From a virus (taxonomy: Duplodnaviria; Heunggongvirae; Uroviricota; Caudoviricetes): a stretch of DNA of 52,483 nucleotides. Shown one piece after another: positions 18,001 through 24,000 of this stretch (its first letter is position 1; each line of letters starts with the position of its first letter). Position numbers: made by a program. The stretch lies in the IMG/VR virus record IMGVR_UViG_2877251553_000005. One strand, given 5' to 3'.

Positions 18001-21000
18001 GTAAGGATTGCCGTGGGCGTGGTGTCGCCATTCATCGTGAAGAGTCGGTAAAACGTGGTATGCCTGTTATCAGAGACTGCCAGCGTTGTGGTGGTCGTGG
18101 CTGTGAAAGACTACCATCAACGGAGGCATTTAATGCCATATGCAAAGTGACGAGTGCTATCACGCTTGATACGTGGAAAAAATCAGTGAAACGCTTTTAC
18201 GATACGTTGGTGGTTCGGTTTGACATTGAAGAGGCATGGGCGGAGCGGCAGTTAAAGAGGGTAACGCGATAGTGTTGTTGATTTTTCCCGAATCTGTGGT
18301 AAATTTGCTCTAACGATGGGCGTTTTATGCCTGACGTTAGAAGATTTTTTACACCCCGCCGCCTGGCGGGTTTTTTATGACTGAAATCGCGTCAGTACAG
18401 TAAACGCGCTGGTGGCGGTGAATACCTGTCTTTCAGCTTGCTGGCTTTTTCGACAAGAGTTATTGGTGTGTCACGTTAACCGGAAAAGGGAAAAAGACAT
18501 GCTGAAACAGCAGGATATGACAGAAACCGCCAGAGTGGTGTTTAATGAATTAAGCGTTAACGACCCGGCGACAGTCGGGGAGATTGCGCAGAATACTTAC
18601 CTTTCACGCGAACGCTGCCAGTTAATACTGACCCAGCTGGTTATGGCGGGTCTGGCAGACTATCAGTTCGGTTGTTACAGACGCCTTCCGCAGTGAAGGC
18701 TTTTTTATTTGTGGTAAATGGGCGGCTGGTGGGTGTTAGGGGCACCCACCAGCCATCTGCTCATGCGTTGGGTTCACAAGCAAACCTCAGGCCCACTGCT
18801 TTGCGCAAAAGCAGAATGAGCCTATCAGAGACAGGCTTAATGATCCATGCTTAATACTGTAAAAATATCCAGTTGTGAGTTAATCAACGCCGACTGCCTG
18901 GAATTTATCTGGTCGTTACCCGAAAATTCTGTTGACCTGATAGTCACGGACCCGCCGTACTTTAAAGTGAAGCCTGAGGGCTGGGATAACCAGTGGAAGG
19001 GCGACGATGATTACCTGAAGTGGCTGGACCAGTGTCTGGCGCAGTTCTGGCGGGTGCTGAAACCTGCCGGAAGTCTTTACCTGTTCTGTGGTCATCGCCT
19101 GGCATCTGATATCGAAATCATGATGCGTGAACGCTTCAGTGTGCTGAACCATATTATCTGGGCGAAGCCGTCCGGACGCTGGAACGGATGCAACAAGGAA
19201 AGCCTGCGGGCGTATTTCCCCGCCACAGAGCGCATTCTGTTCGCGGAACATTATCAGGGGCCGTATCGTCCGAAAGATGCCGGGTATGCGGCGAAGGGCA
19301 GTGCACTGAAACAGCATGTGATGGCCCCGCTGATTTCTTACTTTCGTGATGCGCGCGCGGCCCTGGGGATAACGGCAAAACAGATTGCAGATGCCACAGG
19401 AAAGAAAAACATGGTGTCGCACTGGTTCAGTGCCAGTCAGTGGCAGCTACCGAACGAAAGCGATTATCTGAAATTACAGTCGCTGTTTGCCCGGGTGGCA
19501 GAAGAGAAACATCAGCGCGGTGAACTGGAAAAGCCCCACCACCAGCTGGTGGATACGTATACGTCACTGAACCGGCAGTATGTGGAGCTGCAGAGTGAAT
19601 ATAAGCATCTGCGGCGGTATTTTGGTGTGACGGCGCAGGTGCCGTACACGGATGTGTGGACACATAAACCGGTGCAGTTCTATCCCGGGAAACATCCGTG
19701 CGAAAAACCGGCAGAAATGCTGCAGCAGATAATCAGCGCAAGCAGTCGTCCGGGTGACCTGGTTGCAGATTTTTTTATGGACTCAGGTTCAACGGTAAAA
19801 GCGGCACTGGCGCTCGGGCGTCGTGCGATTGGCGTTGAGCTGGAGACCGGACGTTTTGAGCAGACGGTTCGGGAAGTACAGGATTTAGTCAGCCAGAACG
19901 GATGATATTGCAGAATTAATTACGCGTCGTTATTATGCGGCTCCCGGCCCTTTAGCTCAGTGGTGAGAGCGAGCGACTCATAATCGCCAGGTCGCTGGTT
20001 CAAATCCAGCAAGGGCCACCATCACATACCGCCATTAGCTCATCGGGATAGAGCGCCAGCCTTCGAAGCTGGTTGCGCGGGGTTCGAGTTCTCGATGGCG
20101 GTCCATTTATCGGTATTCTGCGTTGTTAGCTCAGCCGGACAGAGCAATTGCCTTCTAAGCAGCTGTGGTTGCACTCCTGTTGTTTCTGGTGGTGATGGTG
20201 GACTTCAGCAGCCGGATAATGTCGGTGCTGTCTGATGATGTTTTGGTGGCGGGTGTGGTGGTTGTTGCTTTCCCGTTGCTGAAAAAGAAAGCATCAGGCG
20301 ATTAGCAGGGTATCAGTTACCCGTTGAAATTTTTAAATACCTCACAATTCCACAGCTTGATGATTGTCTGGCTGCCGGAGAATTTGTTAAAAATTACATC
20401 GCATGGTGAATCCCCCTCAGCGGCGGGGCATCTGGCAAAGTGTATGATCCAGAGAACATGCAAATTCAGTAGACAGGCTGAATTTACCGGGAGGCACCTG
20501 GCACCATGCGACAGACAGAAATTAGGCTATACTTCAGCCCCTCTCCGGAGGGGCTTTTCTGTGCAGGATGTGTCACAGTTTCCTGAATTCTGAGTACTGT
20601 CCTGTTACTCAGGGTGCTATATTTTCTGACGTGATGAAAGTCTGCCGGAAGGCGGAACGTATCGGAAATGACCCAGTAGAGAAAACGTTGACTCAGATAC
20701 CGATGCTGAGTTACCGGGAAACCGGCATCACATGACCGCTATCCTTCCAGGCTCGCTCCGGCGGGCCTTTTTACTGCAGAAAACAGTTTTCCCGTAAAAT
20801 GCTACGTTGCTCATAATTCAGGCTGGCGATTATTGTCTGGCCAGCGGGAAGTTTGTTAAAAAATTTCGCATGGTGAATCCCCCTGTGCGGAGGGGCAATC
20901 AGCGAGTAGGTATATGGGATAATCGCGGATTCAGGTGCTGGTACTGAATTCACCGGGAGGCACCCGGCACCATGCAATGGCACATAGCGCCACTCTCCAG

Positions 21001-24000
21001 CCCCTCTCCGGAGGGGCTGTTTATATTGATTTTGTCAGATGTGAGTAAACTCCTTATGGACTTTGTTGTTTTAGTCCATAAGGACATATTTGCAGAGTGC
21101 AACGGTTATTAAAGCATTCATTCAATACGTTATCTGTATTTGTAGGGCATTCCTGGCTGTTTTTGATTAAATTCCAGAATGTTTTATTGAATGGCACTAC
21201 GTTGTAAATGGTTACAGGTAGCACTTTGTTATTGAGCATGATGCCTGTGTGAGTCAGTGTAAATATACTTTCAGGAGGTAAGAAAGCATCCGATTGATAC
21301 CAGATTATTAATTTTATTTTACTCCATATGACTGAAAAAGATATTCCGCATGATGGCTGGATAACTGTATCAATCACAATCCACTTCATTTAGTTTCCTT
21401 GTTTATGTCTTGCTGGTGATGTTCTGAAAAGTATAAATGATATTTTTGATTGTAAACCATAGAGCAGAATTATTTTTCTGATGTTGTTTATTGTTTATTT
21501 AAATGCATGGTGGTTTATATCTCGTCTTGTAGTTTATCCATGCATATCTGCTTGATGATGAGGTTTTTATTTAAGGTATGGTTTTGTTTTTTTCTGTATT
21601 ACATGTCAGGTATTTTAAAGAATCATTTTTCAGATGGTGGAAAGAACCATGGCATTTAAACACTATGATGTTGTCAGGGCGGCGTCGCCGTCAGATCTTG
21701 CGGAAAAGCTGACACATAAACTGAAAGAGGGCTGGCAGCCGTTTGGTAGTCCGGTGGCCATAACCCCTTATACCCTGATGCAGGCGATTGCAGCAGAAGG
21801 TGATGTGGTCGTCAGTGGTGCAACTGAGCCGGAGTGGTACTACGTCATCGTACTGGCCGGGCAATCCAATGCCATGGCTTACGGTGAAGGGCTTCCGCTT
21901 CCGGATTCTTACGATGCGCCCCACCCACGTATTAAGCAACTGGCCCGTCGCAACACAGTGACTCCCGGTGGTAAAGCATGCGCATTTAACGACATCATTC
22001 CGGCAGACCACTGCCTGCATGATGTTCAGGATATGAGCGCACTGAATCATCCGAAGGCAGACCTGAGCAAAGGGCAGTACGGCTGTGTCGGCCAGGGCTT
22101 ACATATTGCCAAAAAACTGCTTCCGTATATCCCGAATAACGCGGGGATCCTGCTGGTACCATGCTGTCGTGGTGGTTCGGCATTCACCCAGGGCGCGGAG
22201 GGGACATTCAGTGCGGACACGGGGCCAGCCAGGATTCGGCACGCTGGGGTGTGGGTAAACCGTTATATCAGGACCTGATCGCACGCACCAAAGCGGCATT
22301 ACAGAAGAACCCGAAAAATGTGTTGCTGGCGGTGTGCTGGATGCAGGGCGAATTTGACATGAGCGCTGCCACCTACGCACAGCAACCGGACCTGTTCACG
22401 GCCATGCTGAAGCAGTTCCGTACTGACCTTTCCGGATTTAACGCGCAGTGCCATGGCGGCAGTGCTGCAGTTGTACCGTGGATTTGTGGCGACACGACGT
22501 ATTACTGGAAAAACACATACGGCACACAGTATGACTCCGTCTACGGCGCGTACAAAAACAGGGAGAGCGACAACGTTTTCTTTGTGCCGTTCATGACCGA
22601 CGGTAACGGCAACAACACGCCCACCAACTTACCGGCAGAAGACCCGGATATTGCTGATGCAGGTTATTACGGCGCGCAATCCCGTAGTAATGGTAATTGG
22701 GTATCGTCAAATCGTCCGACACATTTCAGTTCATGGGCGCGCAGGGGCATTATTTCGGATCGCCTGGCAACCGCTATTCTGAACGCAGTTGGTCGAACCA
22801 GCGCCTTCATCAGCGGTACCGCACCGGAGATTAAACCCTCGCCCGGCGGCGACACGCCATCGGGGCCGTCTGATGGTGACACATCCGTTCGTACAGTCTC
22901 CCTGCTGCCGACAGCCGGAGAGGCTGCTGCGCAGGGCTGGACCATCACCGGCGGCAGTGTTGCGCTGGAAGATGGTGTGTTTAAGGTTACCAAGCAGAGC
23001 AATAAAACCTGGTCCCTGATGCATCCGGTGGATGACGCAGTCTCCCTGCTGACACGGGGTGGCAGACTGAGCTGTAAGTTTCGACTGTCAGGCGCACTGA
23101 CCAACAACCAGTTCGGTCTGGGAATTTATCTGTATACCGATGTAGCGTTACCTGACGTCGTGGCGATGACCGGGACTGGTAACCCGTTCCTGATGTCGTT
23201 CTTCACCCAGACCACAGACGGCAAACTGAATCTGATGCATCACAAGAAAGCCGGAAACACAAAGTTGGGCGAGTTCGGGAATTACAGTAACGACTGGCAG
23301 ACGCTGGAGCTGGTGTTCACCGCCGGCAGTGCCACGGTTACTCCGAAACTGAATGGAGTGGCTGGCCCGGCATTCCAGGTCATAAAAGACAGTCTGACAC
23401 TGGGGCTGAATGCGCTGACGCTGACGGATATTACCAAAAATGCAGCGTATGGCGTTGAGATAGAAAGTCTGGTGCTGGAGATAAATGCACCGGCATCATC
23501 ATAAAAAGTGAGCCAGTCAAATGGAAGGTATCGTTAAACTCACCGGTAGTGTCAGTGGGTAGACTGGCCCCCTGAATCTCCAGACAACCAGTATCACTTA
23601 AATAAGTGATAGTCTTAATACTAGTTTTTAGACTAGTCATTGGAGTACAGATGATTGATGTCTTAGGGCCGGAGAAACGCAGACGGCGTACCACACAGGA
23701 AAAGATCGCAATTGTTCAGCAGAGCTTTGAACCGGGGATGACGGTCTCCCTCGTTGCCCGGCAACATGGTGTAGCAGCCAGGCAGTTATTTCTCTGGCGT
23801 AAGCAATACCAGGAAGGAAGTCTTACTGCTGTGGCCGCCGGAGAACAGGTTGTTCCTGCCTCTGAACTTGCTGCCGCCATGAAGCAGATTAAAGAACTCC
23901 AGCGCCTGCTCGGCAAGAAAACGATGGAAAATGAACTCCTCAAAGAAGCCGTTGAATATGGACGGGCAAAAAAGTGGATAGCGCACGCGCCCTTATTGCC

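Follow-up and report, generated by a model that had tools for sequence, protein, structure and literature searches.

A prophage late region with the gene order of Shiga-toxin phages belongs to a common toxin-free relative

Does a prophage late region that follows the gene order of Shiga toxin (Stx)-converting phages, with no toxin genes in it, belong to an stx-negative relative of these phages or to a derivative in which the toxin cassette was replaced? We examined this question in a 52,483-nucleotide stretch of viral DNA (Caudoviricetes; IMG/VR record IMGVR_UViG_2877251553_000005), hereafter the window. The late genes in this region belong to a common relative of Shiga-toxin phages that lacks the toxin, and their arrangement is an ordinary one that has been described before. 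It is very probably the late-operon slot for accessory genes ("morons") of an stx-negative lambdoid prophage, the backbone of which is shared with some Stx2a phages and with the iraL-bearing prophage of Escherichia coli CFT073 and Shigella.

Pfam profiles and a terminator scan recovered the lambdoid late backbone, namely Q, tR', the accessory slot, nanS-p, and S-R-Rz, to which a putative pR' can be added (Table 1). The order Q, methyltransferase, tRNAs, esterase, and lysis genes given in the original prediction is real and matches that of the Stx2a phage Stx2_EH1910, although Q lies outside the interval to which the layout had been assigned and the third tRNA is not intact. Homologues of Q are labeled antitermination protein or quuQ in relative L001, Stx2_EH1910, and CFT073. 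Of the pR'/tR' pair predicted to follow Q, the terminator was found by the scan as a strong intrinsic terminator at the tR' position (18355-18370; 6 G-C pairs, then TTTTTT), whereas the candidate promoter matches 8 of 12 consensus positions and falls under the scan threshold. The 65-aa open reading frame (ORF), annotated as hypothetical in relatives L001, Stx2_EH1910, and L006, has its own terminator (18683-18700), and exact copies of the methyltransferase protein are present in GenBank genomes, including CP026825.1 and others.

Table 1. Features of the late region, in window coordinates.
Feature	Coordinates	Strand	Evidence
Late antiterminator Q, 273 aa, quuQ type	17451..18272	+	Pfam PF03589 Antiterm, E = 3.9e-51
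Putative pR' TTGATT-N16-TAAATT (18279-18306) and tR' terminator	18279..18378	+	Promoter inferred from sequence
65-aa conserved phage ORF, function unassigned	18499..18696	+	phrog_331, E = 5.9e-37
DNA N6/N4 methyltransferase, 352 aa	18847..19905	+	PF01555, E = 3.6e-42
tRNA, anticodon CAU (ileZ; tRNA-Ile2 type)	19946..20021	+	ARAGORN and Rfam, 72.5 bits
tRNA-Arg, anticodon UCG (argN)	20029..20105	+	ARAGORN and Rfam, 50.3 bits
tRNA-Arg(UCU) argO remnant, first 42 of 77 nt	20120..20161	+	Homology to intact argO (Stx2_EH1910, CFT073) stops at 20161
tciB-like (DUF3927) small membrane-protein ORF, 5'-truncated, fused to argO stump	20165..20305	+	phrog_1470
STnc100-family sRNA gene, copy 1	20371..20564	+	Rfam RF02076, 140.5 bits, E = 5e-31
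55-aa conserved phage ORF, function unassigned	20568..20735	+	phrog_23557, E = 2.2e-45, full length
Intrinsic-terminator-like hairpin	20749..20776	+	Terminator scan
STnc100-family sRNA gene, copy 2	20840..21028	+	Rfam RF02076, 132.8 bits
iraL, RssB anti-adaptor, 111 aa	21054..21389	-	111/111 aa identical to CFT073 IraL
iraL 5' UTR, promoter, and upstream regulatory region, AT-rich	21390..21640	-	GC 29-36%
nanS-p type sialate O-acetylesterase (DUF1737-SASA-DUF6645)	21649..23504	+	Pfam
IS2, between esterase and holin	23560..24890	+	Sequence and transposase domains
Lysis cassette: holin S 24991-25205, ydfR-like 25210-, endolysin R 25897-~26429, Rz/Rz1 26728-27132	24991..27132	+	Pfam Phage_lysozyme, DUF1327, Phage_lysis

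The tRNA cluster (anticodons CAU, UCG, and UCU), which we take to be the ileZ-argN-argO cluster named in the 933W literature, is complete in Stx2_EH1910 and CFT073, with 2 of its 3 genes intact in the window. The CAU tRNA was called Met by ARAGORN, and the homologous gene is annotated as tRNA-Ile by PGAP in L001 and CFT073; its sequence is identical to the Stx2_EH1910 copy. The presumably functional argN differs from the Stx2-phage argN at 3 positions and scores lower (50 versus 55 bits). What had been read as a third tRNA-Arg turned out to be a 5' stump of argO, which was called by neither ARAGORN nor Rfam and whose alignment with the complete argO genes of the Stx2 phage and CFT073 stops within the anticodon stem, on its 3' strand. 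The tciB-like ORF to which it is fused (called PF13064 DUF3927 in sister genomes) covers only positions 10-51 of the 54 in its phrog; aligned to the full-length PPyecE gene, it lacks the first ~9 codons, and the stump takes the place of the N-terminus. L001 and phage vB_EcoS-640R1 have the same argO break and the same truncated tciB, base for base. When 5,426 complete E. coli genomes were searched for the argO'::tciB' junction, 325 proved to carry it, and a search of E. coli genomes found at least 80% of positions 17400-23600 in 555 of them. The junction, at which the first 42 nt of argO meet codon ~10 of the tciB-like frame, is very probably the scar left when an ancestor with intact argO underwent illegitimate deletion or recombination, and it is old and widespread rather than a mark of recent toxin loss.

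Between the tRNAs and the esterase, the original prediction had placed two structured repeats and an AT-rich segment. Positions 21000-21650 are indeed AT-rich (29-37% GC), but the repeats are two STnc100-family genes, the AT-rich part is iraL with its promoter, and further ORFs had been missed; the truncated tciB-like ORF, the two STnc100 genes, the 55-aa ORF, and iraL together rule out repeats with AT-rich filler. Both STnc100 copies match the full RF02076 model (gathering score, 47) and were found by the scan to end in intrinsic terminators (20536-20555 for copy 1 and 20998-21019 for copy 2). Copy 2 shares 71% identity with copy 1 and corresponds to the STnc100 gene located 75 nt beyond stx2B in Stx2 phages. 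The position of STnc100 75 nt downstream of stx2 has been reported independently, and family members were detected by RT-PCR in vesicles of Stx-producing E. coli (STEC) (PMC12370729); the family is related to PasD (preprint 10.64898/2026.05.13.724894). The 55-aa ORF is annotated in vB_EcoS-640R1 and PhiR5_2. The hairpin beyond it matches, at 23 of 26 nt, the hairpin that in the Stx2 phage immediately follows argO and precedes stx2A (blastn, Stx2_EH1910 record 5810-5835 versus window 20747-20772, 88%, E = 0.006), which is weak evidence.

The iraL product falls within the IraM subfamily, scoring 162 bits with NCBIfam NF007393, for which the cutoff is 121. Its published transcription start corresponds to window position 21422, where the 5'-RACE sequence matches at 30 of 32 nt (21422-21391), and the upstream region is identical to that of CFT073 at 251 of 262 nt (96%). 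With its own promoter, iraL lies between the tRNAs/STnc100 and nanS-p, which places the window in the iraL-bearing prophage type represented by the CFT073 potB island.

Farther downstream, one-base indels bear on whether the late genes are functional. A NanS-p protein was defined as one of ~620-650 aa that unites DUF1737, SASA, and DUF6645; in the window assembly, a single G is missing from a GGGGG run after 22220, which breaks the frame, and the three domains are split over two frames. The alignment with L001, in which the gene is unbroken and encodes 618 aa, shows 2 mismatches and 1 indel, and four sister genomes likewise have an intact gene. The IS2 that follows is flanked by a 5-bp target duplication (GTGGG; 23555-23559 and 24891-24895) and is 99.6% identical to a second copy in the window (13194-14523). 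Each of S, ydfR, and R carries a 1-nt homopolymer contraction. Were the breaks in the esterase, holin, and endolysin real, the late operon would be partly dead in this assembly, and it is conceivable, if rather unlikely, that the window is a decaying cryptic prophage with genuine frameshifts in nanS-p, S, ydfR, and R and a fossil late-region cargo. Such decay would fit the disruption of four late genes by one-base deletions, the presence of two IS2 copies and an IS1 fragment, and split ORFs in the terminase and tape-measure genes. However, all window-specific indels in the comparable 13 kb are one-base contractions of G/C runs of 4-5, one of them within the IS2 terminal repeat, a pattern matching long-read consensus error; all affected genes are intact in four independent sister assemblies that share these IS2 insertions; and, whatever the status of those frames, nothing is broken in iraL, the two sRNA genes, the methylase, Q, or two of the tRNAs. 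From the sequence comparison, the nanS-p "frameshift," a one-base G-run contraction unique to assembly CP026825.1, is probably a sequencing error.

The interval had been said to contain no stx-like frame, and this was confirmed: tblastn with Stx1A/B and Stx2A/B gave a best E value of 0.57 in the whole window and no match within 20106-21648, and in blastn of the stx cassette with its flanks only argO and STnc100 were matched, leaving no stx remnant anywhere in the window. An Stx-converting phage carries stxA and stxB between Q and the lysis genes; the window has neither there. The Stx-phage late layout without toxin is borne out by Stx2_EH1910, in which the order is the same, the stretch from Q to the tRNAs is 93% identical, and stx2AB lies where the window has none. 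The repeats and the AT-rich segment do not stand there instead of stx, as had been proposed, because STnc100 and an iraM/iraL homologue accompany stx2 in Stx2 phages, downstream of stx2B; both are neighbors of the toxin cassette and not substitutes for it.

Of the two origins considered at the outset, replacement of the toxin cassette has no positive evidence, and an stx-negative relative is supported. We regard it as quite improbable that the window descends from a true Stx-converting phage whose toxin cassette and argO 3' half were deleted or exchanged for tciB'-STnc100-orf55. In favor of such a descent, DNA on the right side of the argO stump must have been lost or replaced, since half of a tRNA cannot have been the ancestral form; the left breakpoint falls within argO, 129 nt before the site equivalent to the start codon of stx2A in the Stx2a phage that shares 93% identity; and a hairpin like that between argO and stx2A persists at 20749-20772. 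The junction thus records some deletion, but nothing points to stx as the DNA that was lost. Neither protein nor DNA searches gave a stx1 or stx2 remnant, and the junction partner is a tciB-like gene, of a kind not found beside stx in either of the Stx phages compared (Stx2_EH1910 and L005). Identity to the Stx2 phage drops from 93% in the left flank to ~70-73% in the right flank, and IraL is 73% identical in amino acids to the iraM-like protein of that phage. The iraL allele of the window was found only in four stx-negative phages and in none of several hundred Stx phage records. iraL is reportedly under-represented in enterohemorrhagic E. coli (EHEC)/STEC (PMC4045071), and the CFT073 relative, with argO intact, is also without stx. 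Because stx remnants are absent, the right flank is divergent, the iraL allele was found in no sequenced Stx phage, and the arrangement recurs in hundreds of E. coli genomes, we assign the window to a widespread stx-negative lineage, common and documented. That the likeness to Stx phages is superficial, a generic lambdoid order from Q to lysis, has next to no probability: many lambdoid phages do carry accessory genes between Q and S, and the Stx1a phage compared has another Q and no tRNAs, but 93% nucleotide identity and synteny with the Stx2a phage over 3.2 kb (17000-20161; end of the DUF968 gene, RusA, Q, to argO), with homology continuing downstream through STnc100, iraM/L, and nanS-p, refute this reading.

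How the region of this toxin-free prophage might work can be outlined by analogy with lambdoid and Stx-phage biology. Upon induction, Q from the delayed-early transcript would modify RNA polymerase at pR', allowing read-through of tR' and the downstream hairpins into the 65-aa ORF, the methyltransferase, the rare-codon tRNAs ileZ and argN, the STnc100 sRNAs, NanS-p, and then the lysis genes. In a lysogen, the cargo would act without induction: iraL would be transcribed on the opposite strand from its own sigma-70 promoter, and its product would bind RssB, protecting RpoS from ClpXP. This role follows from the RssB anti-adaptor function and RpoS stabilization demonstrated for the identical CFT073 protein and with an S. 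sonnei iraL mutant (PMC4045071). The two STnc100 sRNAs, each with its own terminator, are presumably Hfq-dependent regulators. The place taken in Stx phages by stxAB, between argO and STnc100, is occupied in the window lineage by argO'::tciB', the extra STnc100, the 55-aa ORF, and the terminator.

The canonical Stx phages 933W and H-19B (Q, tRNAs, stxAB, nanS-p, S-R-Rz) have the same order as the toxin-free window. In the published order, stx comes after Q and before the lysis genes, and nanS-p follows stx; nanS-p is co-induced with stx and is also found in non-Stx prophages, and a Q of the 273-aa type was present in only one Stx2 prophage of the set studied (PMC10462455). Stx2_EH1910 (LC567834, Stx2a) shares with the window RusA, the 273-aa Q, the 65-aa ORF, the methylase, ileZ, argN, and argO to position 42, in the same order and alleles, and it likewise carries STnc100, a minus-strand iraM-family gene, and nanS-p/yjhS ahead of holin and endolysin. 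In that phage, however, argO is intact and is followed by stx2A-stx2B (~1.4 kb) and then a single STnc100, whereas in the window the argO stump fused to tciB', the extra STnc100, the 55-aa ORF, and the terminator span 689 bp.

In PPyecE_EH1910 (LC567835) and the Stx1a phage Stx1_14040 (LC567819), the slot is bounded on the right, as in the window, by STnc100 and nanS-p (89% identity), followed by lysis genes. PPyecE_EH1910 also has the same methylase module, but its cargo is a toxin-antitoxin pair with tciA/tciB, the full-length tciB directly preceding STnc100; the cargo of Stx1_14040 is stx1AB. Both carry the anti-sRNA AgvB at the iraL position and Q types that differ from that of the window, and the stretches compared yielded no tRNA genes.

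The CFT073 potB-island prophage (NC_004431, 1,328-1,350 kb) resembles the window in its exonuclease, dicB region, hokD, DUF968, RusA, Q, tRNAs, tciB-like ORF, STnc100, iraL (100% in amino acids), and nanS-p start, followed by holin, YdfR, and lysozyme, and has no stx. Unlike the window, it keeps argO intact, with ~500 bp of AT-rich DNA and then a complete tciB downstream, and it has a single STnc100; an IS200 sits where the methylase module would be, nanS-p is truncated, and the integrase and attachment site are different. The stx-negative phages vB_EcoS-640R1, -733R4, -716R1, and -813R8 (ON4706xx) are without the 65-aa ORF/methylase module (window 18379-19905) and have nanS-p cut to its DUF1737 start, but they match the whole of 20100-21640 at 98.4% identity and share the argO'::tciB' junction, both STnc100 genes, and iraL.

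A complete lambdoid prophage occupies most of the window, and 19946-23504 falls within its late region; positions 12847-25905 are 100% identical to GenBank CP026825.1 (2866595-2879653). The feature is of an already known kind, namely, an stx-negative, Stx-phage-like prophage with iraL, STnc100 small RNA (sRNA) genes, and nanS-p. The late-region slot of CP026825.1 thus holds a known RpoS-stabilising gene, iraL, and 2 sRNA genes of a known family rather than a toxin, so the prophage ought not to be counted among toxin-phage remnants; beyond correct annotation, the significance is small.

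Features of the prophage and of the slot between argO and nanS-p (positions in the window)
Feature	Coordinates	Strand	Remarks
Integrase	1-1131	minus	early/replication part
Exonuclease, DicF, replication genes, an IS2, hok/sok, DUF968, and RusA genes			early/replication part
IS1 transposase fragment	4345-4722	minus	
DicF sRNA	5316-5367	minus	
IS2	13194-14523		
sok antitoxin RNA of the hok/sok locus	14882-15057	plus	
Q	17451-18272		PF03589; late regulatory part, just before the region studied
Strong terminator	18355-18370		tR' position
Phage ORF, 65 aa	18499-18696		
N6/N4 methyltransferase	18847-19905		
tRNA, anticodon CAU	19946-20021		homologue is tRNA-Ile per PGAP in Escherichia coli 600055 and CFT073
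tRNA-Arg(UCG)	20029-20105		
argO, nt 1-42	20120-20161		
tciB-like (DUF3927) ORF	20165-20305		first ~9 codons missing; phrog_1470 positions 10-51 of 54
STnc100 copy 1	20371-20564		140.5 bits against a gathering score of 47
Conserved phage ORF, 55 aa	20568-20735		phrog_23557
Terminator-like hairpin	~20749-20772		
STnc100 copy 2	20840-21028		132.8 bits; 71% identity to copy 1
iraL, 111 aa	21054-21389	minus	then 250 bp of 29-36% GC DNA
nanS-p esterase	21649-23504		DUF1737-SASA-DUF6645
IS2	23560-24890		
Lysis genes, Nu1 and gpA terminase, portal, protease, capsid, tape measure, J, and tail fibre			structural part
Terminase large subunit	28113-30082		gpA ATPase and nuclease domains divided among overlapping ORFs
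Tail tape measure	38023-40595		likewise divided among overlapping ORFs
IS009 sRNA-family match	50909-51107	plus	adjoins the tail-fibre end

Upstream of the tRNAs, the methylase represents a separate exchangeable module, since phage vB_EcoS-640R1 lacks exactly the equivalent of 18379-19905 (the 65-aa ORF and the methyltransferase), its sequence passing from the tR' terminator directly to the point just before ileZ, and the CFT073 prophage carries an IS200 at this site.

The original prediction was borne out in part: Q, the terminator, the methyltransferase, the CAU tRNA, tRNA-Arg(UCG), and the esterase all exist as listed. It counted 3 tRNA genes; the third, however, is reduced to the first 42 nucleotides of argO, with the alignment to intact argO (from the Stx2a phage and CFT073) ending in the 3' strand of the anticodon stem. 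The small ORFs of the slot had no NCBIfam match and were identified with PHROGs. The hairpin shares 23 of 26 nucleotides with one in the Stx2a phage that separates argO from the stx2A promoter, but lies here between the 2 STnc100 copies rather than adjoining argO. The "structured repeats" and "AT-rich segment" of the prediction do exist, but the former are sRNA genes of a curated family and the latter is an already described gene plus its promoter, as judged from 3 observations: IraL is identical to the CFT073 protein over 111 of 111 residues, the published iraL 5'-RACE sequence (PMC4045071) matches at 30 of 32 nucleotides (21422-21391), and the upstream region is identical to that of CFT073 at 251 of 262 positions. 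In CFT073, IraL serves as an RssB anti-adaptor, stabilising RpoS in the logarithmic phase, and iraL has been tested in Shigella sonnei as well (Hryckowian et al., PMC4045071). In Stx1a phage Stx1_14040 (LC567819; 5202-5261 of the locus, minus strand) and phage PPyecE_EH1910 (LC567835; 6462-6523, minus strand), the anti-sRNA AgvB (Rfam RF02702) is found between STnc100 and nanS-p, exactly in the place of iraL in the window.

The claim that the interval carries no stx reading frame was borne out. Searches with the A and B subunits of Stx1 and Stx2 (tblastn) gave zero matches in the slot and revealed neither frame nor remnant across the whole window (E ≥ 0.57), and the stx2 cassette DNA with its flanks, at word size 7, likewise detected no stx remnant in the window. 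Positions 20773-20851 were also considered as a clean "empty site" and compared to the sequences flanking stx2A on the 5' side and stx2B on the 3' side; the only matches were the 26-nucleotide hairpin (E = 0.006) and STnc100, so that no exact boundaries of an stx insertion could be drawn.

The argO stump, together with the beheaded tciB to which it is fused, shows that an illegitimate deletion or recombination joined 2 genes in an ancestor with intact argO. The same junction is present in E. coli 600055 and vB_EcoS-640R1 and, according to a 71-nucleotide probe spanning it, in 325 of 5,426 complete E. coli genomes; an initial 246-nucleotide query was discarded because CFT073-like matches in 2 pieces satisfied the 80% coverage filter and inflated the count. 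At least 80% of 17400-23600 is held by 555 genomes, and 4 sequenced stx-negative phages contain the whole interval at 98.4% identity.

The original prediction left a choice between an stx-negative relative of Stx phages and a derivative in which the toxin cassette had been replaced, and the evidence supports the former. Direct descent of the prophage from a toxin phage is improbable: identity of the right flank to the Stx2 phage reaches only ~70-73%, the iraL allele of the window is absent from every Stx phage record in the phage collection searched, and iraL is reported to be under-represented in EHEC/STEC (PMC4045071). Furthermore, tciB, the partner at the junction, lies after tciA in PPyecE_EH1910 but was not found beside stx in the 2 Stx phages compared (Stx2_EH1910, LC567834, and Stx1_14040), and the CFT073 relative, also devoid of stx, has an intact argO with ~500 bp of unrelated AT-rich DNA ahead of tciB. 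Given these points against a toxin-bearing direct ancestor, the prophage very probably belongs to an stx-negative lineage that is widespread and bears an old scar at argO. The AT-rich DNA of CFT073 (42554-43052 of the locus) showed no similarity to stx or any other locus compared.

The slot is already known to take up cargo. Among phages in which its right border is formed by STnc100 and nanS-p, the cargo differs from one phage to another: stx2AB in Stx2_EH1910, stx1AB in the Stx1a phage (which has another Q and lacks tRNAs), a toxin-antitoxin pair with tciA/tciB in PPyecE_EH1910, and AT-rich filler with tciB in CFT073. Homology of the window to the otherwise different Stx2_EH1910, Stx1_14040, and PPyecE_EH1910 restarts at 20851-20854, a shared module boundary within 4 nucleotides of the 5' edge of STnc100 copy 2. 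In 3 sister genomes (PSSQ01000001, PSST01000003, and CP026840), a single STnc100 matched both copies by megablast, an apparent contradiction that disappeared when the sequence was read: the gene (~7513-7710 of the loci) is a hybrid whose 5' part comes from copy 1 and whose 3' part comes from copy 2, with the crossover within the conserved ACCGGGAGGCACC box. It corresponds to a 469-bp deletion by recombination between the 71%-identical copies. The lineage of the window carries 2 diverged copies in tandem, which would be expected after unequal exchange. A 2026 preprint has tied STnc100 to PasD sRNAs and esterase genes of Stx-type prophages (10.64898/2026.05.13.724894). The homology restart near copy 2, the diverged tandem copies, and the hybrid gene fit a tentative and rather doubtful reading, in which STnc100 would serve as a conserved right-hand anchor for cargo exchange among lambdoid phages in the stx slot. 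If so, new sRNA variants with altered 5' regions would arise from cargo swaps as well, stx gain and loss among them.

As for expression, polymerase started at pR' and modified by Q would pass tR' and the later hairpins, so that upon induction, read-through would express the methylase, tRNAs, sRNAs, esterase, and lysis genes; co-induction of nanS-p with stx by mitomycin C has been reported (PMC10462455). Expression in the lysogen would be autonomous for iraL and probably for the sRNAs, and blocking of RssB by IraL, with the resulting stabilisation of RpoS, has been demonstrated elsewhere for identical or homologous parts (PMC4045071).

In the CP026825.1 assembly, each of 4 genes (nanS-p, holin S, ydfR, and endolysin R) is one base short. 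Within the 13 kb comparable with 4 sister assemblies, all 5 window-specific indels (13201, 15843, 22220, 25084, and 25431) are one-base contractions of G or C runs of 4-5, one of them in a terminal repeat of IS2. The indel in endolysin R, which falls after 26237 and thus outside this stretch, was seen against E. coli 600055 only; it is also a one-base G/C-run contraction. The sister assemblies share the IS2 insertions and have intact genes. The indels are probably long-read consensus errors. The frameshifts in nanS-p, S, and R were initially read as prophage decay, a reading dropped as less likely after this comparison, and the apparent pseudogenes should not be counted as decay before the homopolymer calls are checked. 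The divided terminase large subunit and tape measure may reflect the same artefact. The second of the 2 IS2 copies, situated between nanS-p and the holin gene with a 5-bp target duplication (GTGGG), is real and is shared by several sister assemblies; it might cut off late transcription before the lysis genes.

Stx2a phage Stx2_EH1910 is 93% identical to 17000-20161, a stretch that spans RusA, Q, the 65-aa ORF, methylase, ileZ, argN, and the argO stump. Beyond that point, the Stx2 phage continues with the rest of argO, the hairpin, stx2A, stx2B, and, 75 nucleotides past stx2B, one STnc100, followed by a minus-strand iraM-family gene (73% amino acid identity to IraL) and yjhS/nanS-p. Relative to this arrangement, the window lacks ~1.4 kb (the 3' half of argO, the stx promoter, and stx2AB) and has 689 bp extra (20162-20850: the truncated tciB, STnc100 copy 1, the 55-aa ORF, and the hairpin). 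STnc100 occupies the same position relative to stx2 in a 2025 paper (PMC12370729), and a 2023 survey of the Q-to-S region of Stx2a phages placed nanS-p downstream of stx and also found it in non-Stx prophages (PMC10462455), so that the gene order given in the original prediction was correct. The repeats and the AT-rich segment do not, however, stand in place of stx: STnc100 and an iraM/iraL gene regularly lie downstream of stx2, a point helpful for interpreting stx flanks.
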